DNA of 64,000 nt, taken from assembly GCA_045617345.1 (NCBI GenBank), contig JAZLIK010000111.1:8044-72043 (forward strand). Direction: 5' to 3'. This DNA comes from Lachnospiraceae bacterium. GTDB lineage: Bacteria > Bacillota > Clostridia > Lachnospirales > Lachnospiraceae. Positions 1,602-37,049 of the stretch are shown here, piece after piece; positions within the stretch are counted from its first letter, which is position 1, and every line of letters begins with the position of its first letter. Made by a program: the position numbers and the translations under genes. The notes under the pieces are model-generated. The model was not told where the DNA came from, made no database searches, and was given only the letters and a program-made list of their open reading frames with translations.

Positions 1602-1650
1602 TAGAGTAATCTGTTGACTGCGTAACAGTCCGGGCTTATGAATACGTTTT

Positions 1651-1817: not shown

Positions 1818-3014
1818 ATGAGACTACAACCTATTATTACATCATTACTTGATACGGACCTTTATAAATTTAACATGAATCAGGTCATTTTTCATAAACA
1901 CACGGATCTGACAGGCGTATATGTGTTTAAGTGCAGAAACAAAGGAGTAATATTCACCCGGGAAATGCTTGAAGAGATAAATGCACAGGTCGATCATCTC
2001 TGCACGCTCAGGTTTTCAAAGCAGGAGCTGGATTATCTCCGGTCTATCAGATTTATAAAAAAAGACTACGTTGAATTCCTGAGACTATGGCATCCGATAC
2101 GTGATTATGTAGAGACCGGACTTAATGAGAACGGAGTGCTGTCGTGTACGGTAACAGGACCGCTGTTTTCTGCAATGCAGTTTGAGATTTATCTTCTTGA
2201 AATAATAAATGAAGTGTATTTCAGAATGAATTATGATTATGACAGGCTGCTGGAATCTGCCGAGGAACGACTGAACAGAAAAATTGAGGATTTCAGGTAC
2301 AGCAGATATACGTTCAGTTTCGCTGAATTCGGATGCCGCCGTCGTCTTTCGAGAGAATGGGAGGACGTGGTAGTCAGACGTTTGGCGACTGAGACAAAAA
2401 ACTGCGTAGGCACATCGAATGTCTATCTGGCAATGAAATATGACCTTACTCCTATCGGAACTTATGCTCATGAGTTTGTTCAGATGTATCAGGGAATTGA
2501 TTCGATACCGCTTGCATATACAAACCACTATGCTATGGAAGACTGGTATAATGAGTATCAGGGAGATAACGGAACTGCGCTTACGGATACCGTGACAACG
2601 GATTTGTTCCTGCTCGATTTTACAAGAGCCAGGGTAAATAATTTTAGCGGAGTACGTCATGACAGCGGAGACCCCTATGAATGGGGCGAAAAAATCATCG
2701 CTCACTATAAAAAATATGGCGTTGATCCAAAAACCAAGCTTTTGCTGTTTAGTGACAGTCTCGATTTTGACAGGGCGCAGAAGCTGTATGAGTACTTTAT
2801 GGACCGTTCAAAGGTTTCGTTCGGAATAGGAACCTTCTGTAGTAACGATACCGAAGAGGATGCGCTGAACATAGTCATTAAGCTTCAGTATGTGAATGGA
2901 CGTCCGGTAGCGAAGCTTTCGGATGTTCCCGGCAAGACAATGTGTCAGGACGAGGATTATGCCGATTATCTGCACAGGGCGGTTGAATTCAGACTCAACA
3001 GAGAACAGCGCTGA
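1818..3014 (+). CDS. pncB: nicotinate phosphoribosyltransferase
   Basis: ORF 1776..3014. PncB-like N-terminus SLLDTDLYKFNMNQ. ATG at 1818 follows GGAAG with a 7-nt spacer. Confidence 0.85.
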   Translation: MRLQPIITSLLDTDLYKFNMNQVIFHKHTDLTGVYVFKCRNKGVIFTREMLEEINAQVDHLCTLRFSKQELDYLRSIRFIKKDYVEFLRLWHPIRDYVETGLNENGVLSCTVTGPLFSAMQFEIYLLEIINEVYFRMNYDYDRLLESAEERLNRKIEDFRYSRYTFSFAEFGCRRRLSREWEDVVVRRLATETKNCVGTSNVYLAMKYDLTPIGTYAHEFVQMYQGIDSIPLAYTNHYAMEDWYNEYQGDNGTALTDTVTTDLFLLDFTRARVNNFSGVRHDSGDPYEWGEKIIAHYKKYGVDPKTKLLLFSDSLDFDRAQKLYEYFMDRSKVSFGIGTFCSNDTEEDALNIVIKLQYVNGRPVAKLSDVPGKTMCQDEDYADYLHRAVEFRLNREQR

Positions 3015-3148
3015 GGGAACAGCGGGGACAGGCAATTAATAAAGCTGAGATAGCAGCCGGAGACAGCCGATTAATAAAGCTGAGGGAACAGCGGAGACAG
3101 CCGATTAATAAAGTTGAGAGAACAGCCGGAGACAGGCAATATATAAAA
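3011..3148. repeat. tandem array, 34-35-bp unit x 4, starting on the pncB stop codon
   Basis: Units begin CTGAGGGAACAGCGG / CTGAGATAGCAGCCGG / CTGAGGGAACAGCGG / TTGAGAGAACAGCCGG, and each ends ..ATTAATAAAG. Confidence 0.85.
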
Positions 3149-4055: not shown

Positions 4056-4200
4056 TACGCAGAAGAAAATTTCAATAAGCAGAAACAGGAATTTGGAAGA
4101 AGACTACGATAAGCGTAAAAAGGACCGCTGAAAAAGACTCCGATAAGCGGAAAAAGGACCGCAGAAGATGACTTCAAAAGCGGAAAAAGAAAATTCAAAA
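4056..4200. repeat. tandem array, roughly 33-bp unit x 3-4, starting just after the tyrA stop
   Basis: AGACTACGATAAGCGTAAAAAGGACCGC / AGACTCCGATAAGCGGAAAAAGGACCGC / degenerate flanking copies. Confidence 0.75.
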
Positions 4201-4237
4201 TAAATGAATTGTAGGCAAAAGGAAGGGTCAATAAGCT

Positions 4238-5269
4238 ATGGATATGGATTTTGAACGAAAACTGGCTATACCGATGGAAGTGAAGGAAATGTATCCTTTA
4301 ACAGGTAAAATCAGTGAGGTCGTAGACAAAAAAATAAATCAGATAAATCAGATTCTGTCAGGCCAGTCCGACAGGCTGCTGCTGATAATAGGACCGTGTT
4401 CGGCGGATAACGAAGACAGTGTAATAGACTATATCAGCAGACTCAGATCTGTTCAGGACAAGGTGGAGGAGAAGATTCTGATAGTGCCCAGAATATACAC
4501 GAATAAACCCAGAACGACAGGTGACGGGTATAAGGGCATGGTTCACCAGCCCGACCCGAATAAAAAGCCGGATTTGTTTAAGGGGATAATTGCTACAAGA
4601 GAGCTTCATATGCGTGCGGTTCAGGAGACAGGTTTTGCCTGCGCCGATGAAATGCTGTATCCCGAAAACCATAAATATCTGGATGATTTACTTGCCTATG
4701 TGGCAGTAGGTGCACGCTCTGTAGAGAATCAGCAGCACAGACTTACTGCGAGCGGACTTGGAATACCTGTAGGAATGAAGAACCCTACAAGCGGTGACAA
4801 CACAGTTATGCTCAATGCCATCATGGCTGCCCAGCACTCACATACCTTCATATACAGGGGATGGGAAGCACATTCGCATGGTAATCCTTATGCGCATGCC
4901 ATATTGAGAGGATACACAGACAATGACGGACAGACACATCCGAATTATCACTATGAAGATTTGATTCGCCTGTGTGATTCCTATGATAAACGTGAGTTGG
5001 CAAATCCGTCGATAATTATTGATACCAATCATGCCAATTCGGGCAAGAATCCATTTGAACAGCCAAGAATAATCAAGGATGTTCTTTACAGCTGCAGACA
5101 TGCAGAAACCATAAATCGTCACGTTAAGGGCTTTATGGTAGAAAGCTATATTGAGGACGGATCACAGAAAATCGGCGAGGGCTGTTACGGAAAATCAATT
5201 ACCGATCCTTGTCTGGGATGGGAAAAAACCGAAAGAATGATATATGAAATAGCGGATCTTATCAGTTGA
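4238..5269 (+). CDS. 3-deoxy-7-phosphoheptulonate (DAHP) synthase, class I
   Basis: 343 aa with LLIIGPCS, KPRTT..GYKG and IDTNHANS motifs, typical of class I DAHP synthases. Confidence 0.85.
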   Translation: MDMDFERKLAIPMEVKEMYPLTGKISEVVDKKINQINQILSGQSDRLLLIIGPCSADNEDSVIDYISRLRSVQDKVEEKILIVPRIYTNKPRTTGDGYKGMVHQPDPNKKPDLFKGIIATRELHMRAVQETGFACADEMLYPENHKYLDDLLAYVAVGARSVENQQHRLTASGLGIPVGMKNPTSGDNTVMLNAIMAAQHSHTFIYRGWEAHSHGNPYAHAILRGYTDNDGQTHPNYHYEDLIRLCDSYDKRELANPSIIIDTNHANSGKNPFEQPRIIKDVLYSCRHAETINRHVKGFMVESYIEDGSQKIGEGCYGKSITDPCLGWEKTERMIYEIADLIS

Positions 5270-7884: not shown

Positions 7885-8010
7885 TGTAAATTTCAACAAA
7901 ACTTATTTTCAGCTGCTATTTACAGACTTAACATAACGCATTCATAAGCCCTGCCGGCTACGCAGCGAAGCGGACTGCGAACTTTATTGACTAAACGTTG
8001 GAGCATGTTT

Positions 8011-8662: not shown

Positions 8663-11104
8663 ATGGGGAAAAAAATATCAAAAATTATTGCATTTGCGGT
8701 GATAGTAAGTCTGATTACGGTAACAGGCTTTGGAAACTATACTCCGTCCATGGCAGCGAAAATGTATACACCGGAGCGCATAGATGAAGAGTCGGATACC
8801 GACGGTACGGTGGGAACATATGACAACGGGAAAGGCGGAATCCGGTCGGGAAATGCCGAAGATTATGACCGGAGCGCCGGCCGCGGGCAATTTGCACGTG
8901 AGGTGGCTGACATGGTCAATGAATACTGGGAGGATGACTACTTGACCGAGTTCAGTTACGGGAAAACCGACGGAGCAAAAAAAATTAACGGCAAATGGTA
9001 TGTACCGGCAAAGGATTTCTGTAAAAAAACAGGTGGAAAATATACACGAAAAGGGAAGCATTTTTCAATGCAATATACCGACGAAACCGTTGAATGTACC
9101 GTAAACAAAGAAGCGGCGACCGTAAACGGAGAAGACATAAGCCTTGAAAACATGCCTGTAAAAAAGAACAGTAAATACATGATTTCGGCGGATGAAGTAT
9201 TGACCTCCATCGGTTTTGAAGTCGAGGAAAGCGGGACGGGAATCACCGTCAGCAGACCGTATCAGACAAAACGTCTGATTGTTCAGGTAAAGCAAAACCG
9301 TTCAATTAATCCCGATGCTTACGGAGCCGTGAAATATGCGGATGACGGAGAAGGTCTGTATGTTCTCCAGTTTGACAGTGAAGATGACACAATATCTGCT
9401 TATGACAGGCTTACAAATACCGCTAAAATTGAATATGTTGAGGTTGACAGGTATATTTCGATGGTTGAGCCGCAGGAAATTCTTGGGGGCGGAGCAGCCG
9501 GAGGGGACTCCGCGAACGGATATTATGATGATTCTGTCCTGTGGGATGTCAGCATTCTCGGAGCCGATATTCTGGCCGATAAAATCAGAAAGGCCGGAAA
9601 TGACAGAGAAGTGATTGTCGCTGTGGTCGATACCGGTGTGGACTATACACATTCTCTGCTGCAGGACAGTATGTATTCAAAGGGGTACGATTATGTTAAC
9701 AATGATTCGGATGCCTATGATGACAACAGTCACGGCACGCATGTGGCAGGAACGATAGTACAGGTGGCGGATGGGCTGCCTGTTAAGATACTTCCCGTAA
9801 AGGTGTTGTCCGGACAGGGAAGCGGAACCAGTCTGACGGTGGCGAACGGTATTGAGTATGCTGTCGGAAAAGGTGCATCGGTAATAAACTTAAGCCTCGG
9901 AGGAGCCAGCTACGGAAGCGGGCATTACGAGGATCAGGCTGTTACGAAGGCCGTAAATGCAGGATGCATCGTTGTGGCAGGTGCCGGAAATGACAGCTCG
10001 GATACGGCTTATTTCTGTCCGGCACATAACGATAATGCAATCGTTGTGGCTGCAATAGATTCCGATAAAGACCGCGCATATTTTTCAAATTACGGGTACT
10101 CTGTGGATGTGGCTGCACCGGGAGTGGACATTTACAGCAGTATTCCGGGAAACAGATATGATTACTATTCGGGTACATCCATGGCAACTCCGCATATCAG
10201 CGGTCTTGCCGCAATATTAAAGATGATTTATCCCTCCTACGGCTGTGCCGAAATGGAAAAGCTTCTGCGTAATCTTTCGGTGGATTTGGGCGAAAAAGGC
10301 TTTGATGTTTATTATGGTTACGGAATGCCGTATGTCGGGGATGTTGATGTGGGTGGCACATCGGGAAATCCTGCGCCGACAGGAACGCCTTCGCCGACAG
10401 CTGCTCCGAAGCCGACATCGTCACCGAAGCCGTCTCCGACAGCTAATCCCTATCCCACATGGGAACCTTACCCCACATGGGAACCCTATCCTACGTGGGA
10501 ACCTTATCCCACATGGGAGCCCTATCCTACGTGGGAACCTTATCCCACTTGGAATCCTTATCCTACATTGAATCCGTCACCTTCACCTACGGGAAGACCG
10601 ACCGGAAGTCCGACAGCGGCACCTTCGCCTACGGGAAATCCGACCGGCAGCCCGACAGCGGCCCCTTCACCTACGGGAAATCCGACCGGCAGCCCGACAG
10701 CGGCCCCTTCGCCTACGGGAAATCCGACCGGCAGCCCGACAGCGGCCCCTTCACCTACGGGAAGACCGACCGGAAGTCCTACAGCAGCACCTTCGCCTAC
10801 GGGAAAGCCAACCGCTGCCCCGACACAGCCGCCTGCGTATTACGGTGATATTTCTATGAGTGTGAGTTCGTCATCCTCGAGTATTAACGGAAAAATAAGC
10901 GCAAAGATAAAGATATCGGCAGGGGCAGGCATTGCACAGATAACGATAGCCTACGGGGACGGAACCGTTAAAAAATATAAGGGCAGCGGTCAGCCGGTAA
11001 ACCTTGAACTGGAACCGGATATGGGAAGCGGAAAGAGAAGTGTAAAGGTTACCGGCTACGACTATTACGGGAAGGTTGTGTCTGTAACCTCCGTAAGTTA
11101 TTGA
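8663..11104 (+). CDS. secreted S8 (subtilisin-like) serine peptidase with a Pro/Thr-rich repeat tail
   Basis: N-terminal signal/TM segment. Catalytic triad motifs VVDTGVD, HGTHVAGT and GTSMATPHISG. C-terminal YPTWEP and PSPTGNPTGSPTAA repeats. Confidence 0.9.
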   Translation: MGKKISKIIAFAVIVSLITVTGFGNYTPSMAAKMYTPERIDEESDTDGTVGTYDNGKGGIRSGNAEDYDRSAGRGQFAREVADMVNEYWEDDYLTEFSYGKTDGAKKINGKWYVPAKDFCKKTGGKYTRKGKHFSMQYTDETVECTVNKEAATVNGEDISLENMPVKKNSKYMISADEVLTSIGFEVEESGTGITVSRPYQTKRLIVQVKQNRSINPDAYGAVKYADDGEGLYVLQFDSEDDTISAYDRLTNTAKIEYVEVDRYISMVEPQEILGGGAAGGDSANGYYDDSVLWDVSILGADILADKIRKAGNDREVIVAVVDTGVDYTHSLLQDSMYSKGYDYVNNDSDAYDDNSHGTHVAGTIVQVADGLPVKILPVKVLSGQGSGTSLTVANGIEYAVGKGASVINLSLGGASYGSGHYEDQAVTKAVNAGCIVVAGAGNDSSDTAYFCPAHNDNAIVVAAIDSDKDRAYFSNYGYSVDVAAPGVDIYSSIPGNRYDYYSGTSMATPHISGLAAILKMIYPSYGCAEMEKLLRNLSVDLGEKGFDVYYGYGMPYVGDVDVGGTSGNPAPTGTPSPTAAPKPTSSPKPSPTANPYPTWEPYPTWEPYPTWEPYPTWEPYPTWEPYPTWNPYPTLNPSPSPTGRPTGSPTAAPSPTGNPTGSPTAAPSPTGNPTGSPTAAPSPTGNPTGSPTAAPSPTGRPTGSPTAAPSPTGKPTAAPTQPPAYYGDISMSVSSSSSSINGKISAKIKISAGAGIAQITIAYGDGTVKKYKGSGQPVNLELEPDMGSGKRSVKVTGYDYYGKVVSVTSVSY
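10447..10572 (+). repeat. in-frame 18-bp repeats (YPTWEP x about 6-7) in the S8 peptidase gene
   Basis: Read from both the translation and the DNA. Confidence 0.9.
10576..10815 (+). repeat. in-frame 42-bp repeats (PSPTGNPTGSPTAA x about 5) in the S8 peptidase gene
   Basis: Read from both the translation and the DNA. Confidence 0.9.
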
Positions 11105-19630: not shown

Positions 19631-20413
19631 TTATTTCCGGCTGATTTTAAGATTATGCTCCTGTTTCTTTTTTTCAATAAACCAGTAAGTATATTTTATC
19701 GGCGGGAAGTGTCCCATCAGCAGCTGCGAAATTTTAAACAGAAAGCAGGGATAAATCTGTTTCTTGCCTTTTTCTATGCCGGAAACGACCTTGCGTGCGA
19801 CAACGGAGGCCTCCTGAACCGGGAAGGGTCTCATGTATCCTTTACCGCCACCGCCGCCGGCGTTAAAGAAATTGGTGTTTGTAGCTACGGGATACACACA
19901 GGTAAACTGCAGATTTTTGGGCTTTTCGAGGCGGACAGCTTCTTCAAATCCGGCAAGTGCATATTTGGATGCCGTGTAAAGTGAGTAACCGGGCATTCCC
20001 AATTTTCCGATGGCACTGATTGTGGAAACAAAGGTGCCGCTACGGCCGTTAAGATGTTTTATATAACGCACATAAGAATATATGGGAGAATACGTATTTG
20101 TACGGAACAACTTATCGATTCTGTTCCAATTGACATAATTGTAGTTTTCGATATATGCGAAGCCAGCGTTTGCGTAAAAAATATCGATTTTATCGAAAAG
20201 CTTTTCGGACCTTCTGAAAACGGCCTCAACTCCCTCGGCAGTGCTTATGTCGCATTGCATTGGAATAATTTTTTTGGACATGCCCTCGAGAGAGGAAATG
20301 TCAAGTGCAACGGCAAGAATTCTGTTCCCGTGTCCTTTTTTCAAAAGCTTTAATACCTCAAGTCCGATACCGGAGCCGGCACCGGTTATTACTATGTTTT
20401 TGTTTTCTATCAT
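19631..20413 (-). CDS. SDR-family oxidoreductase
   Basis: ITGAGSGIG and YTASKYA motifs. ATG 20413 follows GAGGTG. Confidence 0.8.
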   Translation of the reverse strand: MIENKNIVITGAGSGIGLEVLKLLKKGHGNRILAVALDISSLEGMSKKIIPMQCDISTAEGVEAVFRRSEKLFDKIDIFYANAGFAYIENYNYVNWNRIDKLFRTNTYSPIYSYVRYIKHLNGRSGTFVSTISAIGKLGMPGYSLYTASKYALAGFEEAVRLEKPKNLQFTCVYPVATNTNFFNAGGGGGKGYMRPFPVQEASVVARKVVSGIEKGKKQIYPCFLFKISQLLMGHFPPIKYTYWFIEKKKQEHNLKISRK

Positions 20414-20460
20414 AATAAACACCTCACAATATTTTTTATGTTCGGATAATCCTGTATGAT

Positions 20461-20645
20461 GTTATTATTCACAGTCTGTCCAAAACGTATTCTTCAGCCC
20501 TGTCTGCAGCACAGTCATTCGCTGCTTCGCAAATGAAAGCTTACTTCATGTGCTTTGCCGGGCTTCCGCAGTCGGATGATAATGCTCACAAGCTTGAAGC
20601 AGGCTTCAGGCTTGCGTTCGTTATCATCCGACTGCGAATAGCAAC
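20461..20645 (+). mobile_element. MITE-like element, full-length copy (185 bp)
   Basis: Bounded by GTTATTATTCACAG ... CTGCGAATAGCAAC. Internal palindrome CAGTCGGATGATAATG..CGTTATCATCCGACTG. Colinear with 29279..29463. Confidence 0.7.
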
Positions 20646-20897
20646 ATTATTTTATCATATAATGTCTGCTTCGTCAAAAGTACTGATGCCTATTGAGACA
20701 CACATTTATTCGCACTATGTGTTCTTAAAACGCAAATATCATTCAAAATCTGCTGATTTTCTTCGAAAAAAAGGTTGGGTCTTCACTTTTTGATTCGAAA
20801 AGTTCATTTTTTCAGCAGGACTGCCGGAAAATAACATACTTTTGATGATTGTATTTTATTTGTGCATCGGCTAATATATCATGAGATATGAAAATGT

Positions 20898-22457: not shown

Positions 22458-23168
22458 ATGGATGATGTTAGAATTATTGAAGTAAAACGAAGTGTTTTTG
22501 ATGATAATGATAAAGATGCTTGTTGCCTCAGACAGCAGTTAAAAGAAGAGAAAACGTTTCTATTAAATGTGATGTCATCACCGGGAGCCGGAAAGACAAT
22601 GATGTTAAAACGGCTTGCGGAAAAACTTGCAGGGAAGGTTAAATTTGCTGTAATGGAGGCTGATATTGATTCTGATGCGGATGCAAGAGCGATGCGCCAA
22701 ATCGGAGTTGATGCCATACAGATTCACACCGGTGGAATGTGTCATTTGGACGCGGATATGACAAGGCAGGGGCTTACGGAGCTTGGAAGCAGTAAGTATG
22801 ATCTTGTTATTTTGGAAAATGTGGGTAATTTAGTGTGCCCTGCGGAATTTGATACCGGTGCTGTTAAGAATATGACAATTCTCTCAGTACCTGAGGGAGA
22901 TGACAAGCCGCTGAAGTATCCATTGATGTATGAAATATGCAATTTGCTTGTTATCAGCAAAATGGATGTTATTGACAGCTTTGATTTTAATCCGGAGAAA
23001 GCAGTAAGCTATGCCAGGATGCGCAACCCGGAAATCAAAGTGATTTGTATTTCCGCTAAAACAGGTAAAGGAATCGATGAACTGGCGGATTGGATAATAG
23101 AAAATGTTAACAGTTGGAATATGGAAGCCGGTTTCCCGGGTCAGCCTCAAGCAAACGTTATCGAGTGA
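22458..23168 (+). CDS. hypB: hydrogenase/urease-type nickel incorporation GTPase HypB
   Basis: P-loop SSPGAGKT, ENVGNLVCPAEFD and ISKMD motifs. The last roughly 20 codons lie in a dispersed repeat. Confidence 0.8.
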   Translation: MDDVRIIEVKRSVFDDNDKDACCLRQQLKEEKTFLLNVMSSPGAGKTMMLKRLAEKLAGKVKFAVMEADIDSDADARAMRQIGVDAIQIHTGGMCHLDADMTRQGLTELGSSKYDLVILENVGNLVCPAEFDTGAVKNMTILSVPEGDDKPLKYPLMYEICNLLVISKMDVIDSFDFNPEKAVSYARMRNPEIKVICISAKTGKGIDELADWIIENVNSWNMEAGFPGQPQANVIE

Positions 23169-23336
23169 CTTTTGTCACGAGATTATGTGTTTTGTCCGGA
23201 TTTCATAGTCAGACGATAATGTTCATAAATCCTGAAGCAGGCTTCGGCGCGGAGCTCATTATCATCCTACTGTGGATAGAAGCGTTACATTAACATAAAA
23301 AAGTATTTGCGAGGAAAAGTTACTGTGAACGGTAAC
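23110..23336. repeat. mosaic of dispersed repeat modules overlapping the hypB 3' end
   Basis: GCAAACGTTATCGAGTGACTTTTGTCACGAGAT matches 429..470. Also CAGACGATAATG..CATTATCATCCTACTG and a terminal CTGTGAACGGTAAC. Confidence 0.6.
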
Positions 23337-23347: not shown

Positions 23348-24052
23348 ATGAGTGATTTTATCAGATTTGAGAAAGTATGCAAGACCTATACCATGGGTGA
23401 AGTAAAGATTGAAGCCCTAAAGGATGCGGGATTTACAATTCAGAAGGGCGAAATATGCATTATAGTAGGCCCCTCGGGTGCGGGAAAAACCACACTTTTG
23501 AATATACTGGGAGGTATGGACAGCCTGACTTCGGGAAGGATTTTCCTTGAGGACAGGGAAATATCGTCGTATTCCAGGAAAGAGCTGACTTCGTTCAGAA
23601 GATATGATGTCGGGTTTGTGTTTCAGTTTTACAATCTGATTCCGAATCTGACAGCACTGGAAAATGTAGAGCTGGCATCCCAGATATGCAGGGAACCGCT
23701 TGATGCACATGAAGTTATGAAGAGAGTCGGACTTGAAGAAAGAGAAAAGAACTTTCCTGCACAGCTTTCCGGCGGAGAACAGCAGCGTGTGGCCATTGCC
23801 AGAGCACTGGCAAAGAATCCCAAGCTTTTGCTCTGTGACGAACCTACCGGTGCGCTTGATTATGTGACCGGCAAACAGATTTTAAAGCTTCTTCAGGATA
23901 CGGCGCGACAGACGGGAATGACGGTTATTATCATTACCCATAACAGTGCGCTTACAGATATGGCTGACAGAATTATCAGAGTAAAGAGCGGCACGGTGGT
24001 CGAAGAGAAGATAAATCCGGCTCCCGTACCGGTAGAGGATATTTCGTGGTAG
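23348..24052 (+). CDS. ABC transporter ATP-binding protein (MacB/LolD-like)
   Basis: [36 protein letters not shown]. Confidence 0.9.
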
Positions 24053-24158
24053 CTTTGCTTGTTTGACGTTACTGTTCATTATCATATGACTGTGAGCTTT
24101 GACCGGACTGTGAACAGTAACTGCTTGACTCTTTGAAGGTTTGTGAGGATGATTTGAA

Positions 24159-27014
24159 ATGATTTTCAAAAATATGCTACGTCAGATAAGGCATTCACTT
24201 GGGCGTTATCTGGCAATATTTGCAATAGTGGCGCTTGGTGTCGGTTTTTTTGCGGGGCTGAAGGTTACCAGGGATGCTATGGTAAAAACAGGCGAGAAGT
24301 ATTTTGAAGAACTGAAGCTGTTTGACTTAAGGCTTGTCAGTACGCTTGGATTTACGGAAGATGATGTGGATAAATTTGACAGTCTTACATTTGTGTCCGA
24401 ATGCATCGGATCTGTCAGTGCGGATGTACTGATTCTGCAGGAAAACGGAGCAGACGGAGTACTCCACGTCCATTCGCTGTCAGATTCGATGAATGTGCCG
24501 GAAATTCTGTTCGGAAGGCTTCCGGAGGCCGGTGATGAGTGTGTACTTGACAACAAGAACTACGACGAGGGAATGCTTGGAAAGTATATTGTACTTTCTG
24601 ACAATAACGAGGCGTCAGCCGGTGATACATTTGTTTATGACAGGTATAAAGTGGTCGGAGTGGTAAACTCACCCTATTATATCAATTTTGAAAGAGGTGC
24701 AAGCAGTCTTGGCTCGGTTTCGGGTTTTATGTATATTCCTGAGAGTGGGTTTAAAACTGATTATTATACGGAGATTTTCCTGCGTTTTTCGGAAAGGCAT
24801 GAGATTTATTCCGAAGAATACGAAAATTATACAGCCGAATGTGAACAGCAGATTACTCCGATGCTGGAGAAATGTGCGGCGGACAGATATGACAGCCTGA
24901 AATCAGATGCACTCGACCGTATACACAGTGCCGAAGCGGAGCTTGCGGACGGCAGAAAAGAATATGAAAGCAAAAAGGCAGACACCGAAAAAAAGCTGCT
25001 CGATGCTGAAGCACAAATAGCTGAGGGTGAAGAGCGGATTAACGTTGCGAAGGAGAATCTGGATAACGGGACTGAGCAGCTGAATGATGCGTACAGCCGT
25101 TTTGAAGCTTCAAAAAACTACATGGATACGCAGATGGCCGAACAGCAGGCAGCAGCTCTTGAAGGAATGAAAACAGAGCTTGATACGGCAGCGGAGCAGC
25201 TTGCCGAATCGGAGCTGCAGCTGGAGACGGCGCGTGCAGAGCTTGAAGAGAACAGGAAAACTGCAGAGGAAGAGTTTCTGAAGGCCGAGAGCGAGCTTAA
25301 TGATGCGCAGAGTAAGATTGATGAAGCATATATTCAGCTCGAAGATCTTGCTGAACCATCAACATTTGTTCTGGGAAGAAATACAAATATCGGATATGCC
25401 TGCCTTGAAAATGATACAGGAATAGTGAGCGGTATATCAAAGGTATTTCCGTTATTCTTTTTTATCGTGGCATCACTTGTCTGTGTTACTACAATGACCA
25501 GAATGGTTGATGAACAGCGTGTTCAGAACGGAGTACTGAAGGCACTTGGTTACAGTGATACTGTTATTGTGGGACAATATCTTTTTTATGCAGGCTCGGC
25601 GTCGGTTTTGGGGTGCATTCTCGGTTTTCTGATTGGTTCGCGCTATATGCCGATGGTATTGTGGAAGATTTACCACATCATGTATTCAATCGAAAGACCG
25701 ATAGTATATCTGCTTGACTGGAGTCTGTTTGCGTTCTGTGCAATTCTGTATCTGATAGCAACTCTCGGTGCCACATGGATGGCGGCTTCCGGAGATCTTA
25801 AGGAAGCGGCGGCGGAGCTTATCAGACCCAAATCTCCTGCGGCCGGAAAGAGGGTTCTTTTGGAACGGATAGGCTTTATCTGGAAGCGAATCAAATTCCT
25901 GCATAAAGTATCAATCCGCAATATACTCAGATATAAAAAGCGAATGTTTATGATGATAATCGGGGTAGGAGGCTGTACGGCACTGCTTTTGACCGGATTC
26001 GGTATCAGGGATTCAATCCAGCCGATACTGGACTATCAGTACAATGAGATACATTTATATGATATAGCGGTTATGTATCTTAATGAAGTGTCACCTGAGG
26101 AACAGAGAAATATAACTGAGGCTCATTCCGGCGATGCGAAAGGAATCAGGTTTATTCATTCGGAAACAATGGATCTTGTGACGAATGATTCCTCGGATTC
26201 CGTAACACTGGTTGCGGCGGACAACATTGAAAAGGAGTATATCAGTCTTCATAAGGGGGATGAGATATACAGCTGGCCCGGAAAGGGTGAAGTTATCATT
26301 GACTACAGACTTGCAAAGGACAATGATATTGAAATCGGTGACACAATAGAGTTCCGTGATTCAGATTTTAATTCGATAAAAGTAAAGGTTTCCGGTATAT
26401 TTGACAATTACATTTATGATTTTGCATACATCAGCTCAGATACCTATGAGGAACAGATGGGGAAAGCTCCCGTACAGGACGGTGCGTATGTACTTTTGAA
26501 GGACGGAACAGATGCTGCTGAGGCAGTAGCCGTGTTTTTAAAAGATAAAAACTGCGGAAGTGTCAGCATTATCGAAAATCAGCTGGCGAATGTCGGAAAT
26601 ATGCTTTCATCCCTTGATTATGTGGTGCTGATAGTTCTGGTGTGTGCCGGAGCACTTGCTTTCATAGTAATATATAATCTGACCAATATCAGCATAAATG
26701 AACGAATCCGTGAGATAGCAACGATAAAGGTACTTGGTTTCTATGAGAGCGAATCTGCCGCATATGTGTTCAGGGAAAATCTGGTGCTTTCACTGATTAG
26801 TGCAATAGTCGGGCTTCCCATGGGGGTAGCTCTCCACCGATACGTCATGGCGCAGATTAAGATTAAGGGTATGTATTTCGGACACAGGATACTTCCCGCG
26901 AGCTTTGTCTGGGCTCTGGTTCTGACTATGGTATTTGCCGTAATTGTTGATTTCTTTATGTATTTCAGACTGAAAAAAATAAATATGGCAGAATCCCTGA
27001 AGGCAATCGAGTAA
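24159..27014 (+). CDS. FtsX-family ABC transporter permease with two FtsX modules and a coiled-coil extracytoplasmic region
   Basis: 951 aa with an N-terminal TM, a long Glu/Ala/Leu-rich coiled-coil segment, and two 3-4 TM blocks. Follows the ATPase gene. Confidence 0.8.
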   Translation: MIFKNMLRQIRHSLGRYLAIFAIVALGVGFFAGLKVTRDAMVKTGEKYFEELKLFDLRLVSTLGFTEDDVDKFDSLTFVSECIGSVSADVLILQENGADGVLHVHSLSDSMNVPEILFGRLPEAGDECVLDNKNYDEGMLGKYIVLSDNNEASAGDTFVYDRYKVVGVVNSPYYINFERGASSLGSVSGFMYIPESGFKTDYYTEIFLRFSERHEIYSEEYENYTAECEQQITPMLEKCAADRYDSLKSDALDRIHSAEAELADGRKEYESKKADTEKKLLDAEAQIAEGEERINVAKENLDNGTEQLNDAYSRFEASKNYMDTQMAEQQAAALEGMKTELDTAAEQLAESELQLETARAELEENRKTAEEEFLKAESELNDAQSKIDEAYIQLEDLAEPSTFVLGRNTNIGYACLENDTGIVSGISKVFPLFFFIVASLVCVTTMTRMVDEQRVQNGVLKALGYSDTVIVGQYLFYAGSASVLGCILGFLIGSRYMPMVLWKIYHIMYSIERPIVYLLDWSLFAFCAILYLIATLGATWMAASGDLKEAAAELIRPKSPAAGKRVLLERIGFIWKRIKFLHKVSIRNILRYKKRMFMMIIGVGGCTALLLTGFGIRDSIQPILDYQYNEIHLYDIAVMYLNEVSPEEQRNITEAHSGDAKGIRFIHSETMDLVTNDSSDSVTLVAADNIEKEYISLHKGDEIYSWPGKGEVIIDYRLAKDNDIEIGDTIEFRDSDFNSIKVKVSGIFDNYIYDFAYISSDTYEEQMGKAPVQDGAYVLLKDGTDAAEAVAVFLKDKNCGSVSIIENQLANVGNMLSSLDYVVLIVLVCAGALAFIVIYNLTNISINERIREIATIKVLGFYESESAAYVFRENLVLSLISAIVGLPMGVALHRYVMAQIKIKGMYFGHRILPASFVWALVLTMVFAVIVDFFMYFRLKKINMAESLKAIE

Positions 27015-27159
27015 AATCGCCAGCAGTCAGACGTGAACCGTCGGACAGAACCGAATACCGGAAGAAAATAGCCGGGCAAATCGGCAGCAGTCAGACGTGA
27101 ACCGCCGGACAGAAACGAATACCGGAAGAAAATAACCGGGCAAATCGGCAGCAGTCAGC
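27014..27159. repeat. tandem array, 64-bp unit x about 2.3, starting at the permease stop codon
   Basis: AAATCGSCAGCAGTCAGACGTGAACCGYCGGACAGAAMCGAATACCGGAAGAAAATARCCGGGC, repeated. Confidence 0.85.
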
Positions 27160-27232
27160 ATATCTGCGCGAATAGCGGGTAGGCTGATCGCTGCCTGTTT
27201 TTGATTGTGAACGGTAACAGGAAATATACAAC

Positions 27233-29218
27233 TTACAGCAGGATTAACGGGATTACCAGGAAGAATACTCCGAAGGCAATTGCGGAAATCCTGCTTTTAC
27301 TTTTATGACTGATGTACATGACTGCGAGGCTGAGTGCAAATGCGATGAGTGCACGGAAGGCATAAAGCATAATCAGGTAAAAACCGGTTGACCATTCGAA
27401 CGGGAATCCGGACATGCAGGGAATGCTTTGGACGGGATAGTCGAAATTATCCAGCGGAAGCTTGCTTTTTATGGCAAAAAACTGTATCAGATGAATGACG
27501 GTGGAGCAGGCCATACTCGTAACGGCTACCAGAAGAAGCTTGTATGTCAGTAGCTTTTTACCGCCTTTGTACAGCGTATGGAGAGTAGTTTCCATATGTG
27601 AGGTCTTTTCACAGGCAAGAATTCCGGAGAACATCATGATTACGGCTATAAGTATATAGAGATAGTTCTGCCTTGTGGTCAGATAATCGTGGTCAAGCAG
27701 AGTGTCATAGCCCGTGGTATCGGAAAGTATAATCAGTATTCCTTTTTCATGAAGGAGGTTTACTCCGTCAAAGGCTCTGTCTCTTATAATTCCTATGGCT
27801 GTCAAATCGTGTTCATACTCATAAATTGTATCTTCGAGTCTTTTTATGGTTGCCGAGACGGAGCCGGTATCATAGCCAAGCATGCTGTATTCGATGAGTA
27901 TTTCGTACTGACGCTTAAGAGAAGCCTTTAAGCGTTCAAGTTTTTGTGTCATGGTGTCGGTTTTCTCATCAATTGCGGCAAGCTTAGCATCGTCGGCGGG
28001 ACCTTCAAACGTCTGATACCACCTGAGCAGACGCGGACTTCGTGAATCAATATAGGTCATGTCTTTTGCCGAGCTAAAGGCCACGAAAAAGATAAGGATG
28101 AGTATAATCAGGGCTTTCTGGGAAACAAAGAGTTTTTTCATTTCCCATAAAAAAGCCGGATATGCAGGTTTATGTCTGCTGATAAATGCTTCGGCACGAT
28201 TGAGAAAACGATTTGCTGAAGCATTACGTACGGGATATGAGAAGGTATATCTCAAAAGGCAAAGGGCAGAGAAAACAGTAAGCCCAACAGGCAGAAGTAT
28301 GTTGACTCCTTTATTTATGCCGACGGGAGTGCCGAATATGTTAAGGTTAAGATAGTGACCGTAGTCCGTACCGTTAAAGATAACCGTGTACAGGTTCAGG
28401 TATTTAAAAGCACAGAGTGAATCTGTCGGAAGCAAAGCCGCATAGAGGATTATTTCCAAAATACAGAAGGCAACAAAGAGAACAATGCTGAGGCTTGACC
28501 TTATTACAGACATGAAGAAATAGAGTATGAGACAGCTGAGAATGCAGGCGGCTGCCTTTTTTATCAGAAAAACTGCCATGTATCCGCCGATTGATATATG
28601 TCCCGTGACTCCGCCGAGCTCAGGAATCGACTGCACGGGACGTGACAGTGCAGGACCGGGGAATATTATACCGGATATGACTGCCGTAGCGGAAAAAAAC
28701 AGAATACCGGAAACAAAAACACCTGTGAACAGAGTAAGCAGTCTGGTAAGAGTGAGTGGAAATCTGCCCTTTGAAGTGCAGCGTACCAGAAGGAACAGAC
28801 CGTTTTTTTGCTCAGGCATGAATGACATGACGATATAGATACCCGTCAGCAGCATGAACAGACCGGTCATGCGATAATCGAGAACAGTCATGATTCCGCG
28901 GTTTTCACCGAAAACGGGAACTATGTCGGACAGCGTGGAATAATCCTTTTTGGTGACTTCCAGATTTTTAAAGGTAAATGAGGAGCTGTCGGAAAACAGT
29001 GGATTTGTAAGCATTGTATCGGCGTTTTCAAGAACTTCGCCGATTGAGGCACCAAAACCTTCTGCGTAGAGTTTAAGCTCTTCACCGGTCAGCGTGTTTG
29101 TTTTGAGTTCATTGCACTGGTAGAAGAAAAGCACGCTGTTCAGAAGCAGAAGAATACAGAAGAGGGTAATTGTTTTTCTGCTCAGCAGAACACGTTTGAT
29201 TTCAGGAAAAACAGGCAT
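27233..29218 (-). CDS. polytopic membrane protein, putative duplicated ABC-2/NatB-like permease
   Basis: Two multi-TM halves separated by a soluble coiled-coil-like segment. ATG 29218 follows AAAGGAG. Downstream of the ATPase gene and paralogous in layout to 48733..50829. Confidence 0.65.
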   Translation of the reverse strand: MPVFPEIKRVLLSRKTITLFCILLLLNSVLFFYQCNELKTNTLTGEELKLYAEGFGASIGEVLENADTMLTNPLFSDSSSFTFKNLEVTKKDYSTLSDIVPVFGENRGIMTVLDYRMTGLFMLLTGIYIVMSFMPEQKNGLFLLVRCTSKGRFPLTLTRLLTLFTGVFVSGILFFSATAVISGIIFPGPALSRPVQSIPELGGVTGHISIGGYMAVFLIKKAAACILSCLILYFFMSVIRSSLSIVLFVAFCILEIILYAALLPTDSLCAFKYLNLYTVIFNGTDYGHYLNLNIFGTPVGINKGVNILLPVGLTVFSALCLLRYTFSYPVRNASANRFLNRAEAFISRHKPAYPAFLWEMKKLFVSQKALIILILIFFVAFSSAKDMTYIDSRSPRLLRWYQTFEGPADDAKLAAIDEKTDTMTQKLERLKASLKRQYEILIEYSMLGYDTGSVSATIKRLEDTIYEYEHDLTAIGIIRDRAFDGVNLLHEKGILIILSDTTGYDTLLDHDYLTTRQNYLYILIAVIMMFSGILACEKTSHMETTLHTLYKGGKKLLTYKLLLVAVTSMACSTVIHLIQFFAIKSKLPLDNFDYPVQSIPCMSGFPFEWSTGFYLIMLYAFRALIAFALSLAVMYISHKSKSRISAIAFGVFFLVIPLILL

Positions 29219-29278
29219 AGAAGCTCCTTTCGGCAGAGTTGTTTCGGAATGTATTATGAATTGAGTTTTTCGCTGAAA

Positions 29279-29463
29279 GTTACTATTCACAGGCTGCCCA
29301 AATCACATTCATAAGCCCTGTCTGCTGCGCAGTCAGTTGTTGCCACGCAGCTTTTGGCTTATTCATGTATTTTGTCCAGCCTCCGCAGTCAGATAATAAT
29401 GTCCACAATCCTAGAAGCAAGCTTCAGGTTTGCGTTCATTATTATTCGCTTGTGAATAGTAAC
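29279..29463 (+). mobile_element. MITE-like element, full-length copy (185 bp)
   Basis: GTTACTATTCACAG ... TGTGAATAGTAAC. Colinear with 20461..20645. Lies between the ABC ATPase and permease-like genes and contains the ATPase stop codon. Confidence 0.7.
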
Positions 29464-30205
29464 CTTTGGCAGCATACAGGTACACGTCTTCGAGAGTCAG
29501 ATGATCGGGAATTTGGGAATTGTTCCGCCGCAGCTGCTCACGTGTCCGGTTTATCAGATTCTGCGGGGTGTCAAAACACATGAGGGTTCCGTGACTGAGC
29601 AGAAGCACCCTGTTCGATATAGTTTCAATATCACTGATGACATGTGTTGCCAGAAGAACTGTGCGGGTATCGGCCACAGAAGAAATGTAATCTCTGAGAC
29701 GCACCCGTTGTGCAGGATCGAGTCCGGCAGTCGGTTCGTCAAGAATCAGGATTTCCGGCTCGTCCAGCATTGCCGCAGCCAGGAGAACACGCTGCTTCAT
29801 GCCGCCGGAAAAGGAACCGAGTTTATGGTGGGCATTGTCGGAGAGGCAGACTATATCCAGAAACTGTTCCGTTTGCTGTTTACAGAGTCGTGATTTCATC
29901 CCCTTGAGAGCTCCGATATAGTGAAGAAAATCTCTGGCTGTGAAATCCTCGTATATTCCCTGAAGCTGCGGTGTATAGCCAATTTTCATGAAATATTTTC
30001 TGCTCAGACCGGAAATATCTGTGCCGTTATAAAGAACCTCACCCGATGTACGGGGGATATTTTTGGTGATGATGTTGAGCATGGTTGATTTACCGGCACC
30101 GTTTGCACCGAGAAGCCCGTAGACGCCCGAGCCGAAGGTGACGGACAGGCTGTCGAGGGCGGTTTTGTTTCCGTATTTTTTTGTCAGATTAATCAGTTCA
30201 AGCAT
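29411..30205 (-). CDS. ABC transporter ATP-binding protein (ABC-2/NatA-like)
   Basis: GANGAGKST, FSGGMKQRV, ILILDEPTAGLD. Start is MLELINLTKKYG. The 3' end runs into a MITE-like element. Confidence 0.85.
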   Translation of the reverse strand: MLELINLTKKYGNKTALDSLSVTFGSGVYGLLGANGAGKSTMLNIITKNIPRTSGEVLYNGTDISGLSRKYFMKIGYTPQLQGIYEDFTARDFLHYIGALKGMKSRLCKQQTEQFLDIVCLSDNAHHKLGSFSGGMKQRVLLAAAMLDEPEILILDEPTAGLDPAQRVRLRDYISSVADTRTVLLATHVISDIETISNRVLLLSHGTLMCFDTPQNLINRTREQLRRNNSQIPDHLTLEDVYLYAAKGYYSQANNNERKPEACF

Positions 30206-30256
30206 AAATAATCTCCGTTTTGAATGAATGTGATTTGTCCGGACTGTGAACAGCAA

Positions 30257-30300
30257 CTGATAATGAAGTCAAAAGAACCGACGCATGTCGATGCAGTTCA
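30257..30300 (-). promoter_or_regulatory. conserved box, looser copy 3
   Basis: Minus strand reads TGCATCGACATGCGTCGGTTCTTTTGACTTCATTATCAG, about 50 nt upstream of the ABC ATPase start at 30205. Confidence 0.4.
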
Positions 30301-33136: not shown

Positions 33137-33438
33137 TTATTTGGACTGACTGCGAAGCAGGCAGTCGCTGCTTCCGGGTTATTTGTCCGGATAGCGGGCA
33201 GGCTGACCGGAAGCTTTTGGTAATTGTTATTTGGCTATGTGGCGAATAGTGATATTATCGTAATATATGACATATATATCATAACATAGTCAATGTTTAT
33301 TTTTGTGAAAATCATCTATTATTTAGAGCATGGGAAAATGTAACCCTTTGGGGACAGCCTGTATCACATAACCATTATGACAATTACTTTACAGGCAAGA
33401 TTGCAGTAATTGTCATTTGATTTGTGATGAATAGTAAC
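33137..33438. repeat. mosaic of dispersed repeat modules
   Basis: CGGATAGCGGGCAGGCTGACCGGAAGCTT resembles 391..420 and 27168..27195. TATGACAATTACTTTACAGGCAAGATTGCAGTAATTGTCA plus GATGAATAGTAAC matches 503..565. Confidence 0.6.
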
Positions 33439-33474
33439 TGTAATCAAAATTATTAAGTGGAGAAAGGAAAAAAA

Positions 33475-35466
33475 ATGAAACGTACAAAGATGTTTTTGGG
33501 AGCACTGTTTGCAGTTGTTTTCTGTATGATTATCGGAGGAACTGCGGCATATGCTCAGGATGAGACGTGGGACAAGGGCATGACACTCAGTTCCGACACT
33601 ACTGTAAACGGCAACCTTTATGTTAAAGGTGGCACAGTCGATTTAAACGGTTATACACTTAATGTAACGGGTGATTATAATCAGATAGCCGGTACACTGA
33701 AGATTGGCACCGGTACACTGAATGTAGGCGGAGACCTTGATTTGTGTGTACTGAACGGTAATACATACGGAAAGACCTCCTCAAGCGTATATTTTTCGAT
33801 GACCGATGCCAAGGGCAGAGTGAATGTGGGCGGAAGCTACAGACAGAACGCAAATCTTTATGATAGCAGAAGCGCCGGAATTATGACAGTGGCAGGAGAT
33901 TTTTGTCAGTACGGCAGCAACAGCTTTTATTCAAGCAGTTCATTTGAGCTGGTACTTACCGGCGAGAAGGTACACAATTTCTTATTTGAAAGCAGCAGTT
34001 CATGTATTCAGACGCTGACTGTGAAGGACGGCGGAAGCCTGAAGTGTTCAAATTCTTATTTCAAAGCAAATGCTGTAACGACAAATATTACTATTAATTC
34101 TGACGGCGGGCTCGTTCTTGAAGGACTCGGACTGCAGGGAACCAAGTGTACAATTAACAGCCCCGAGGCGGTTATTGCCGAGGGAGGAAGCATAGATATC
34201 GGACTCGGACAGTCGGGAGCGGAGCTTAATGTGACCGGTGATTTCGAGATTCACGGAGGCACCCTGAAGATTGGCGCCGGGGTACTGAATGTAGCAGGCG
34301 ATTTAAATCTTTGTGTTGTAAACGGCAGTAATTACAGTAAGACCTCTTCAAGCGTATATTTTTCGATGACCGATGCAAAGGGCAGAGTGAATGTGGGCGG
34401 AAGCTACAGACAGAACGCAAATCTTTATGATAGCAGAAGCGCCGGAATTATGACGGTGAACGGAGATTTCTGTCAGTACGGTACGAATTCATTTTATTCA
34501 AGCAGTGCCTTCGAGCTTGTTCTGGTAGGAAATAGGGCTCACGAAATCAAGCTTGAAGAAAAAAGCAGTAAAATAGGAAATCTGACAATTAATAACGGAG
34601 CTGATACGAAGCTGTTGTCGGATGTTATTGTTGACAAGGATGTAAATCTGTACGATGCCGTTCTGAATCTGAACGGATATACATTAACAGTCGGAGGCAA
34701 CTTCAATCAGTTTGGCGGTACAGTTAAGGAAAACGGAGGAACGCTTACGGTTAAGGGCAAGCATAATGTCAATGGTGCGGTAAAGCAGCCTGAGGTTACG
34801 GCAATACCTACGGCAAAGCCCACGGAGGCGCCTGCAGCCACACCTACGGAGGCACCTGTGTCAACGCCTACGGCAAAGCCCACGGAAGCACCTGCAGCCA
34901 CACCTACTGAGGCTCCCGTATCAACGCCTGCCGGGGAGGATGACGAATATGATGATGACGAAGATTTGATTGATATCGCTGACTGCTCCGTAACGGTTAA
35001 AAACGTTAAATATACCGGCTCGGCCAGAAAGGCAACGGTAACGGTTAAATATGACGGTGAGAAGCTCAAGAAGAACAGGGATTATATACTTACTTATTCC
35101 AACAATACCAAAATCGGAAAAGCTACAGTTAAGGTAACAGGCAAGGGAAAATACGAAGGAAGCATAAAGAAAACCTTCAAGATTCTGCCTCAGACTCCTG
35201 AAATTCTGGACATATATGAGAATGAGGACGGCAGAGGATATGTGATTGAGTGGGAAGAATCCGAGGATGTTTCGGGTTATGAAATCAAATATGCAAAGAA
35301 AAAGAGCGGGACATATTCAAAGCTGAAGACAGTTGCGGATAATGACACCGAATGTACCACTACAAAGCTAAGAGACGGGATGTACGTAAAAATCAGAGCA
35401 TACAAAAAGGTAAACGGAACAAAGTTCTACAGTGATTATTCCGAGATTTTCAGATTCGAGGAATAG
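33475..35466 (+). CDS. secreted repeat protein (beta-helix-like duplicated module, Pro/Thr linker, Ig-like C-terminal domains)
   Basis: Signal peptide MKRTKMFLGALFAVVFCMIIGGTAAYA, a roughly 105-aa module repeated 189 aa apart, and a duplicated PTAKPTEAPAATPTEAPVST linker. Confidence 0.7.
   Translation: MKRTKMFLGALFAVVFCMIIGGTAAYAQDETWDKGMTLSSDTTVNGNLYVKGGTVDLNGYTLNVTGDYNQIAGTLKIGTGTLNVGGDLDLCVLNGNTYGKTSSSVYFSMTDAKGRVNVGGSYRQNANLYDSRSAGIMTVAGDFCQYGSNSFYSSSSFELVLTGEKVHNFLFESSSSCIQTLTVKDGGSLKCSNSYFKANAVTTNITINSDGGLVLEGLGLQGTKCTINSPEAVIAEGGSIDIGLGQSGAELNVTGDFEIHGGTLKIGAGVLNVAGDLNLCVVNGSNYSKTSSSVYFSMTDAKGRVNVGGSYRQNANLYDSRSAGIMTVNGDFCQYGTNSFYSSSAFELVLVGNRAHEIKLEEKSSKIGNLTINNGADTKLLSDVIVDKDVNLYDAVLNLNGYTLTVGGNFNQFGGTVKENGGTLTVKGKHNVNGAVKQPEVTAIPTAKPTEAPAATPTEAPVSTPTAKPTEAPAATPTEAPVSTPAGEDDEYDDDEDLIDIADCSVTVKNVKYTGSARKATVTVKYDGEKLKKNRDYILTYSNNTKIGKATVKVTGKGKYEGSIKKTFKILPQTPEILDIYENEDGRGYVIEWEESEDVSGYEIKYAKKKSGTYSKLKTVADNDTECTTTKLRDGMYVKIRAYKKVNGTKFYSDYSEIFRFEE
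33658..34545 (+). repeat. intragenic duplication: roughly 315-bp module at 33658-33975 repeated at 34225-34545
   Basis: The core (about 33775-33890 versus 34342-34457) is almost identical at nucleotide level. Offset is 567 bp (189 codons). Confidence 0.85.
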
Positions 35467-35568: not shown

Positions 35569-35881
35569 TATAGGAAATTACGTCCTATAAAGTAAAAAAC
35601 GCTCCGCGAGGATGCGCACGCTTTTGCAGCGGTATTTTGTCGCTAACGCGACGCAAAAGCGGCGCAGCATGTCGCAAGCAACATGCTTTCTTGATTGCAG
35701 TATTACAGAATTGATTTTAATGTTTATAAATGGTATTATAATAATAAATTGTTGCTGTTCACAGTCTGTTCGAAACACATTCAAAAGCTTTGCCTGCGCG
35801 TAGTCAGTCGCTGCTTATGGATTCGGTTCGAACAGACCGTGAAAAGTAACCGGAAAACATCAGTGTGGAGGAACCGGGGAT

Positions 35882-36805: not shown

Positions 36806-36955
36806 CGTACCGGACGGGAGGACGGGAGGCATAAGTTCGATTAATGTCCGAAACGAAAACGGGAAAACGTACCGGACGGGAGACCGGGAGGCATAAGTTC
36901 GATTAATGTCCGAAACGAAAACGGGAAAACGTACCGGATGGGAGGACGGGAGGCT
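36806..36955. repeat. tandem array, 62-bp unit x about 2.4, starting 4 nt after the moxR stop
   Basis: CGTACCGGACGGGAGGACGGGAGGCATAAGTTCGATTAATGTCCGAAACGAAAACGGGAAAA, repeated. Confidence 0.85.
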
Positions 36956-37049
36956 TGTGCTCATTATCACCCGGCTGTGAGCAGTAACGGGGACATGTTA
37001 CTGATTATTGGATAGAAGTGTAAGTTAGAAAATACTGCGGAGGACAGAG

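Follow-up and report, generated by a model that had tools for sequence, protein, structure and literature searches.

The stretch of Lachnospiraceae DNA analysed here (64,000 nucleotides in total, hereafter the window) harbours a dispersed repeat that is very probably a family of MITEs of about 185 bp, which bear terminal inverted repeats (TIRs) of the IS66 type and are moved in trans by a transposase of the IS66 family. The repeat family and its TIRs, 8-bp target-site duplications, empty orthologous sites, the identity of the TIRs with those of an IS66-family insertion sequence (IS) and a conserved folding of the copies were observed directly; judging from the sequences, the IS66-family transposase would be the enzyme that mobilises the MITE. 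A previous sequence-only reading of the window had described the repeat as MITE-like, and this description is supported by the presence of copies elsewhere, by their non-orthologous sites, by the 8-bp duplications and the empty sites and by the lack of a transposase in the window. Indeed, the family unites the features by which MITEs are recognised, namely a small size, a non-coding sequence, TIRs, a duplication of fixed length (in relatives, not at the window copies), dispersed copies, polymorphic sites and an autonomous element with matching ends. The family is new and of a well-known kind, and its fold is unusually well conserved.

The window is ordinary chromosome with a GC content of 43%, and the best matches of its proteins come from Lachnospiraceae MAGs. 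Its genes concern aromatic amino acids, NAD and hexuronate, several ABC transporters and two agr-like modules. The three full-length, colinear copies of about 185 bp that had been noticed in the window all exist, with a mean column identity of 78%. Copy 1 (20461-20645, plus strand, 185 bp; 138 bits with the covariance model) is located between an SDR gene (19631-20422, minus strand) and the promoter-like site of that gene (20677-20649, minus strand). Copy 2 (29279-29463, plus strand, 185 bp; 169 bits) is inserted in the 3'-terminal part of an ABC ATPase gene, just upstream of a permease gene, the true start of which is at about 29218. Copy 3 (53833-54015, inverted on the minus strand, 183 bp; 146 bits) separates a GGDEF/HD gene from the tagaturonate reductase gene, and an extra solo end (53796-53809) is situated beside it. 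While the positions previously given for copies 1 and 2 are right, those for copy 3 (53843-54025) were 10 bp off.

The copies begin and end with GTTAYTATTCACAG ... CTGYGAATARYAAC, except that the right end of copy 2 reads TTGTGAATAGTAAC and the left end of copy 3 starts with TTTATT. The 14-bp TIRs and end sequences described earlier were confirmed; among 12 copies taken from several species, the TIR hardly varies. In copy 1, the TIRs occupy positions 20461-20474 and 20632-20645, and hairpin B spans positions 20567-20636; the inner palindrome that had been reported is formed there by two 34-nt arms (20567-20600 and 20603-20636), which are 85% complementary and centred on GAAGCAGGCTTC. With at most one mismatch, the terminal 14-mer GTTRYTRTTCACAG occurs 17 times in the window, which far exceeds chance (0.12 occurrences expected; none of 100 shuffled sequences reached 17). 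The ORFs that run across the full copies (181-186 bp) and the derivatives (51-111 bp) are spurious and match no protein family. Copy 1 is adjoined at 20655-20790 by another repeat, which is unrelated to it and about 130 nt long. The other copy of this repeat (72-80% identical) is inverted at 44400-44534 and falls into the divergent promoter region next to an agr-like operon encoding AgrB, a LytTR regulator and a kinase (41425-44264). Metagenome contigs break at position 20672, too, and this repeat may be a further mobile element or else a promoter that both sites share and that is under LytTR control.

The claim that many deleted and mosaic derivatives fill the intergenic regions also held. 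Using nhmmer profiles and a covariance model, matches at E<=0.01 were found to cover 1.3 kb, corresponding to 19% of the intergenic DNA, and to touch 15 of the 34 gaps of at least 40 nt; almost none are located inside genes. Most of the derivatives listed before were recovered, with the exception of 27160-27222, which contains only degenerate end-like motifs, and with weak matches at 40441-40624 and, against the model, at 33350-33438. Six further ones can be added (630-791, 1613-1739, 30224-30257, 36951-36988, 53796-53809 and 55757-55855). The sequence-only reading had called this density unusual for a Firmicute; the density is real, but it is unusual only as a matter of degree when compared with the BOX, RUP and bcr1 families, which reach comparable numbers.

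The derivatives are of several types (the strand is given for those with an assigned orientation). Partial copies that combine a hairpin-B module with an end are located at 23142-23336 (plus strand, right end with TIR at 23323-23336) and at 58127-58262, where the hairpin is only B-like. Mosaics were found at 48571-48657, where a hairpin-B module and an end module lie between ABC ATPase and permease genes, and at 297-565, where end-like motifs are joined to a hairpin-B variant with a right TIR at 552-565. The derivative at 33350-33438 (plus strand) consists of a hairpin-B variant and a degenerate right end and belongs to the same subfamily as 469-565; positions 483-548 and 33357-33422 are 86% identical. 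Partial or degenerate forms are also present at 630-791, at 7916-7972 (plus strand, part of an A-side end module) and at 40441-40624, a degenerate full-size copy of 184 bp with end modules on both sides that scores only 13 bits. A two-ended derivative of 100 bp (35751-35850) retains the TIRs and the hairpin-A arms only (38-nt arms, 79% complementary). Solo ends occur at 36951-36988 (plus strand, TIR at 36975-36988), at 57518-57562 (minus strand, between uxaA and the C_GCAxxG gene, recovered by the profile searches at 57549-57562), at 30224-30257 (minus strand, in the 5' leader of the same ABC ATPase gene in which copy 2 is inserted) and possibly at 24068-24121, which is either a short derivative or a solo end located 37 nt upstream of an FtsX permease gene. 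Moreover, ends have been amplified in tandem: the end module at 1613-1739 (minus strand) carries about five copies of the terminal 17 nt (AGACAGTGAACAGTAAC) at 1652-1739, and a 36-nt TIR-bearing unit is repeated 2-2.5 times (55765-55855) within the derivative between uxaB and uxaA (55757-55855, minus strand).

Pairs of TIRs bracket some of the genes, such as the ATPase gene (29279...30257) and the MoxR gene (35751...36988). However, a composite transposon was rejected as an explanation because duplications are lacking and locus L040, which carries the orthologous ATPase gene, has a single end; the bracketing is a coincidence of a dense repeat. In three separate ABC ATPase-permease pairs (23348-27014, 27233-30256 and 47644-50829), the spacer between the two genes is precisely where a copy or a fragment of the MITE lies. 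This placement may reflect safe landing sites reached by coincidence, or it may hint at an effect on the relative expression of the genes in the operon.

Several other repeats were noticed in the window. Tandem duplications with units of 34-69 nt (3010-3147, 4075-4189, 27014-27158 and 36806-36954) or 15-16 nt (58884-59013) begin either at the stop codon of the upstream gene or directly behind it (genes of NAPRTase, prephenate dehydrogenase, FtsX permease, MoxR ATPase and a HAD hydrolase), and in L040 a 44-nt duplication in the orthologous spacer at 4200-4290 extends across the stop codon of the ATPase gene. The duplication of gene 3' ends thus looks like a genome-wide tendency. The tagaturonate reductase gene (54067-55767) contains an in-frame tandem repeat (42 bp x 2.8, 55072-55197); the protein has 560 aa as compared with about 486 aa in most homologues, and the insert is covered only by the homologues P0033 and P0034 (about 63% identity). 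Furthermore, the gene of a subtilase-family protein (8663-11104) carries long arrays of 18-, 36-, 42- and 84-bp repeats at 10393-10868, which encode a repetitive linker rich in Pro, Thr, Trp and Glu, and the gene of a 669-aa protein without a clear family (33457-35466) contains a 266-nt duplication (33691-33956 and 34258-34523, 84% identical) as well as 24- and 60-nt repeats (34802-34929).

A comparison of strains for presence or absence of the repeat had been suggested, and the orthologous sites were indeed found to be empty. In L040, an ortholog of the permease beside copy 2 was found (83% aa identity), and the ATPase-permease spacer, which holds the 185-bp copy in the window, is free of the element in L040 (88 nt) as well as in L041 and L042 (18-20 nt). 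Conversely, a partial copy that follows the kinase gene in L040 is missing from the window. The syntenic uxaB-uxaA-C_GCAxxG-HAD-DUF4097 cluster in L044 is empty in every spacer, including the 50-nt spacer between uxaB and uxaA, whereas the window has a copy in each. Conservation at orthologous positions, which the sequence-only reading had named as evidence for UTR structure rather than mobility, was not seen at these sites.

The window copies look like old relics. The full copies share only 73-80% pairwise identity, their flanks match at 4/8, 4/8 and 2/8 positions and thus show no recognisable duplication, and many further copies have been truncated, have a mosaic make-up or persist as solo ends only. 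The element would by now be inactive in this genome. Copy 2 has evidently rewritten the C-terminus of the ABC ATPase: the protein ends with ...YLYAAKG followed by YYSQANNNERKPEACF and the stop codon, the ortholog ends with ...YLYHAREQLSS, and the final 16 residues together with the stop codon are supplied by the MITE (29411-29463, minus strand).

Further copies outside the window, on which the earlier description had been made to depend, are present in several Lachnospiraceae MAGs and metagenomes. When 185,579 species genomes were scanned with a 24-nt end pattern, only Lachnospiraceae MAGs were matched besides two likely chance matches; the carriers are SGB_5640, SGB_6054, Tb.RUG.451/532, a yak-rumen MAG and Lachnoclostridium UBA1308. 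Many of these matches lie at contig ends, as expected since the repeat breaks assemblies. Full-length copies of 181-186 bp were found in the loci L002, L009, L010, L013, L019, L022 and L032, which represent at least five other Lachnospiraceae MAGs or metagenomes. In loci of other genomes, the element alone matches the window, the flanks being unrelated and the sites non-orthologous. A variant of 170 bp (L012 and L038) has the same TIRs as the MITE and an unrelated interior, which indicates that the ends are the mobilised unit. Neither the element nor its 42-nt end matched the plasmid and phage collections, and a scan of viral contigs with two end patterns gave no match with the one and a single match at chance level with the other.

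The target-site duplications that had been asked for were detected in these relatives and measure 8 bp. Perfect duplications (8/8) flank the copy in L002 (AATAGGTC), a 111-bp deletion derivative in L007 (AATTTATT) and a 51-bp mini-element in L024 (TATTTCAT), and near-exact ones were found in L010 (7/8), L022 (7/8) and L008 (6/8). Offset flanks, which served as a control, give about 2-3/8 matches. Since 6 of 16 sites have a duplication of at least 6/8 and the chance per site is about 1% by our own estimate, the duplications cannot be due to chance. Moreover, the copies within the MAG SGB_6054 are 98% identical to each other, which indicates recent activity in SGB_6054. In gut metagenomes that hold the strain, the contig depth of the end module is 218-811 as compared with about 3 for the flanks (70-300x), which suggests about 100-300 copies of the end module. 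The resulting figure, on the order of 10^2, should be read as an upper estimate, since part of the depth may stem from other species in the sample. Metagenome contigs with differing, unrelated flanks stop exactly at positions 20461 and 29279, thereby confirming the edges of the element. In L009, two MITE copies (1-107 and 109-291) directly follow each other, their outer ends being 1 nt apart, in L023 the terminal 13-nt unit is duplicated in tandem (4811-4837), and the loose metagenome ends at 29279 display an adjoining ...CTGTGGATAGTAAC end. These observations suggest insertion beside or into existing ends.

None of the 49 ORFs in the window has a transposase domain, which agrees with the earlier statement that no IS, RAYT or TnpA gene is in view, and the ORFs beside solo ends in the MAG loci are housekeeping genes only and include no transposase. 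An IS with ends matching the TIR, for which a search had been recommended, was found outside the window. All retrieved loci were searched for inverted end motifs 0.6-4.5 kb apart, and L033 stood out because its ends are 2634 bp apart and enclose two ORFs, a small one and one of 659 aa that has a DDE_Tnp_IS66 domain. Homologues of this transposase (99%, 87% and 81% identical) are encoded on three more contigs (L045, L046 and L047). Thus, four copies of the IS are available from independent metagenome contigs (L033 188-2821, L045 55-2688, L046 54-2691 and L047 1-2638); they are 2634-2638 bp long and carry inverted GTTACT(A/G)TTCACAG at both ends, the end sequence of the proposed IS66-family partner being GTTACTATTCACAG. 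The contig L047 consists of exactly the IS and nothing else, which is the signature of a collapsed multi-copy IS. Except for this element, no IS66 transposase was found in the retrieved loci or in the window, and the L033 IS was not detected at a nucleotide identity of at least 80% in the metagenome runs X1-X5, which contain the strain.

The 657-aa transposase matches the NCBIfam model NF033517 'IS66 family transposase' with 196.9 bits (cutoff 180) and the Pfam model PF03050 DDE_Tnp_IS66 with 82 bits (cutoff 23.1), and it has a coiled-coil N-terminal extension of about 250 aa. Upstream of it lies a 117-aa ORF that belongs to no Pfam or NCBIfam family, and recognisable tnpA or tnpB genes were not found in the IS. 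The layout of the element comprises the left end, a perfect hairpin (CCTCCCTGAC...GTCAGGGAGG), a promoter region with repeated CATAACTATG motifs, the 117-aa ORF, the transposase gene, a terminator-like hairpin and the right end. The IS appears to be an undescribed IS66-family insertion sequence. Read inward, its IRR, which is the end downstream of the transposase gene, has the sequence GTTACTGTTCACAGCCTGCCCAAAATGAAT, and copy 2 reads GTTACTATTCACAGGCTGCCCAAAT; the IRR matches the A-side of the MITE (the end beside hairpin A) over about 24-26 nt, and the IRL matches the B-side over about 14-20 nt. The IS and the MITE have only their ends in common, and the interior of the MITE is unrelated to the IS. 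Experimentally captured elements of the IS66 family are flanked by 8-bp direct repeats (PMC3281130 Table 2), which fits the 8-bp duplications of the MITE. The flanks of the IS copies themselves match at 2/8, 2/8 and 5/8 positions, while the fourth copy has no flanks; clean duplications may be absent here due to chimeric assembly of a multi-copy element.

According to the explanation favoured here, the MITE carries the 14-nt TIRs of the 2.63-kb IS66-family IS and, on one side, about 24-26 nt of the end of the IS. The 657-aa DDE transposase of the IS, which also encodes the 117-aa ORF, would move the non-coding MITE in trans, cutting AT-rich targets, most of them in short spacers between genes, with a stagger of 8 bp. 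In uncultured gut Lachnospiraceae, the family has grown to a copy number on the order of 10^2, and it decays into deleted forms of 51-111 bp, into mosaics and into ends that are either solitary or amplified in tandem. The window contains old relics throughout, with no transposase nearby, and one of its copies rewrote the C-terminus of an ABC ATPase.

The interior of the MITE deserves separate consideration. All full copies share an architecture in which the TIRs form a closing stem around arm A, a conserved linker and arm B; arm A is a long stem enclosing two small hairpins (three-way), and arm B is a 25-30-bp stem with the apex AAGCTTGCTT. Copy 2 is predicted to fold with -81.7 kcal/mol as RNA (z = -11) and with -40.9 kcal/mol as DNA (z = -8.4). 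The interior diverges in sequence between species. When ten copies were aligned, which represent about six species and are phylogenetically related, 88% of the cells were seen to pair in the consensus structure and changes on both sides were found in 29 of the 61 pairs. None of 500 shuffled alignments reached any of five measures, and slid controls pair at 33-46%. The TIR helix (helix 1) is invariant and 96% paired, and the arms A and B covary; indeed, the arms of hairpin B are 82% complementary within a copy as compared with 59% between copies. The apex and the linker (CTGTAAAGGCTGG) are conserved, while the stems vary. The bottom strand, i.e. the reverse complement of the strand used to build the model, folds more stably in 11 of 13 copies and contains 55 G-U pairs versus 23 on the other strand. 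The consensus structure has 44 G-U versus 21 A-C pairs (p=0.006), but this test favours the strand on which the structure was predicted, and it was applied to related sequences. The interior fold is thus conserved, probably on one of the two strands. The conserved fold exceeds what the recognition of the TIRs by a transposase requires.

This raises the question of whether the repeat is primarily a functional module of structured RNA or single-stranded DNA that is mobile only incidentally, which would be compatible with the MITE reading. Selection would then maintain the two-arm fold on one strand because of its action in transcripts. Such a module could act as a determinant of processing or stability within operons, as a leader element or as a small RNA, or it could be needed in cis for transposition. 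The covariation, the conserved loop and linker amid variable stems, the fold z-score of -11 and the favoured bottom strand speak for it, as do the location of several copies in ATPase-permease spacers or 5' leaders and the presence of the element in contigs from RNA runs. However, these contigs are undirected and may contain DNA, the arms of a palindrome can also co-evolve without any function by intrastrand template switching, and the orientation relative to the flanking genes is unbiased (7:4 for the full copies alone and about 7:7 when the orientable partial copies are included). Moreover, Rfam gave no match at the gathering threshold over the whole window, the only match on the element at E<=10 being due to chance (E=3.7), and neither a convincing promoter inside the element nor a terminator tail on the favoured strand was found. 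Hence, we regard a primarily functional module as rather unlikely. A similarly low probability is assigned to the idea that selection might keep the interior as a strand-specific structured nucleic acid, be it an operon-modulating RNA or a single-stranded or cruciform cis-requirement of IS66-type transposition.

Two other readings fit the data far less well than a MITE mobilised by an IS66-family transposase. The repeats could be vertically inherited cis-regulatory or UTR sequences, for instance operators for a host regulator binding CTGTGAATAGTAAC, as even old fragments preserve the 14-mer almost unchanged and the leaders of the ABC ATPase gene in the window and in L040 carry a solo TIR at matching positions, even though the surrounding spacer cannot be aligned. 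However, the unrelated flanks of the copies in other genomes, the many different flanks into which contigs break at the edges of the element, the empty orthologous sites and the duplications contradict vertical inheritance, and the neighbouring genes share no function, so that we consider regulatory sequences of this kind very improbable. Still less credible are REP/REPIN or IS200/IS605-type palindromes, which are spread as single-stranded hairpins by a Y1 transposase (RAYT or TnpA). The high intergenic density, the long hairpins, the strand-asymmetric folding and the lack of duplications at the window copies would be in line with such an origin. Yet the exact 8-bp duplications in relatives are incompatible with Y1 transposition, which makes none, and the 14-nt ends are true TIRs identical to those of a DDE (IS66) element; a REP unit of 20-40 nt headed by GTAG or CGTC is missing, and no Y1 transposase is encoded in the window. 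On account of the duplications and the DDE-type ends, a REPIN/RAYT or IS200/IS605 identity was rejected.

The analysis adds an undescribed MITE family together with an IS66-family parent, whose hosts are abundant, uncultured gut Lachnospiraceae. The end sequence was absent from the literature searched, from Rfam models and from plasmid and phage records, and the literature searched contained nothing on a Lachnospiraceae MITE either. To our knowledge, MITEs tied to IS66 elements have rarely been reported. The repeat is of practical relevance because it fragments MAG assemblies, rewrites gene ends and occupies spacers within operons, and it therefore matters for annotation, strain typing and possibly operon regulation. 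Furthermore, the covarying, strand-biased fold provides a tractable case for studying selection on MITE interiors. If a cis-acting structure were indeed needed for IS66 transposition, it would be the first structural cis-requirement described for a poorly understood mechanism.

Among known systems, the ISBst12-type subgroup of the IS66 family is characterised by the lack of tnpA and tnpB, and the parent IS resembles this organisation, with the 117-aa ORF instead of these accessory genes of IS66 elements; its transposase differs by the extra coiled-coil region at the N-terminus. ISfinder gives GTAA ends for the IS66 family; the ends described here read GTTA and thus start with GT as well. The TIR is identical to that of the IS66-family element and the size of the duplication agrees with the family (PMC3281130), whereas the MITE is non-coding and has an unrelated interior. 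REP, BIME and REPIN sequences are similar in their intergenic density, hairpins and mosaic arrangements, but REPINs depend on Y1 enzymes and have neither target-site duplications nor DDE-type TIRs. The Correia elements of Neisseria, the ERIC/IRU elements of Enterobacteria and the RUP elements of Streptococcus pneumoniae are co-transcribed long hairpins that can alter mRNA processing or stability or add coding tails. They differ from the MITE in that their sequences are unrelated, their hosts belong to another clade and they form a single hairpin instead of two arms and a closing stem; moreover, Correia and RUP duplicate TA and are linked to other IS families. Like the MITE, these elements are small, TIR-bounded and non-autonomous and are found in or near genes (PMC2229807, PMC3184786). 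The bcr1 repeat of the Bacillus cereus group is also unrelated in sequence and duplicates TTTAT rather than 8 bp. We know of no IS66 parent for bcr1. In other respects, bcr1 is similar to the MITE, as it is an intergenic Firmicute repeat of about 150-190 bp that is present in 10^2 copies and is predicted to fold stably, with compensatory changes having been reported (reviewed in PMC3184786).
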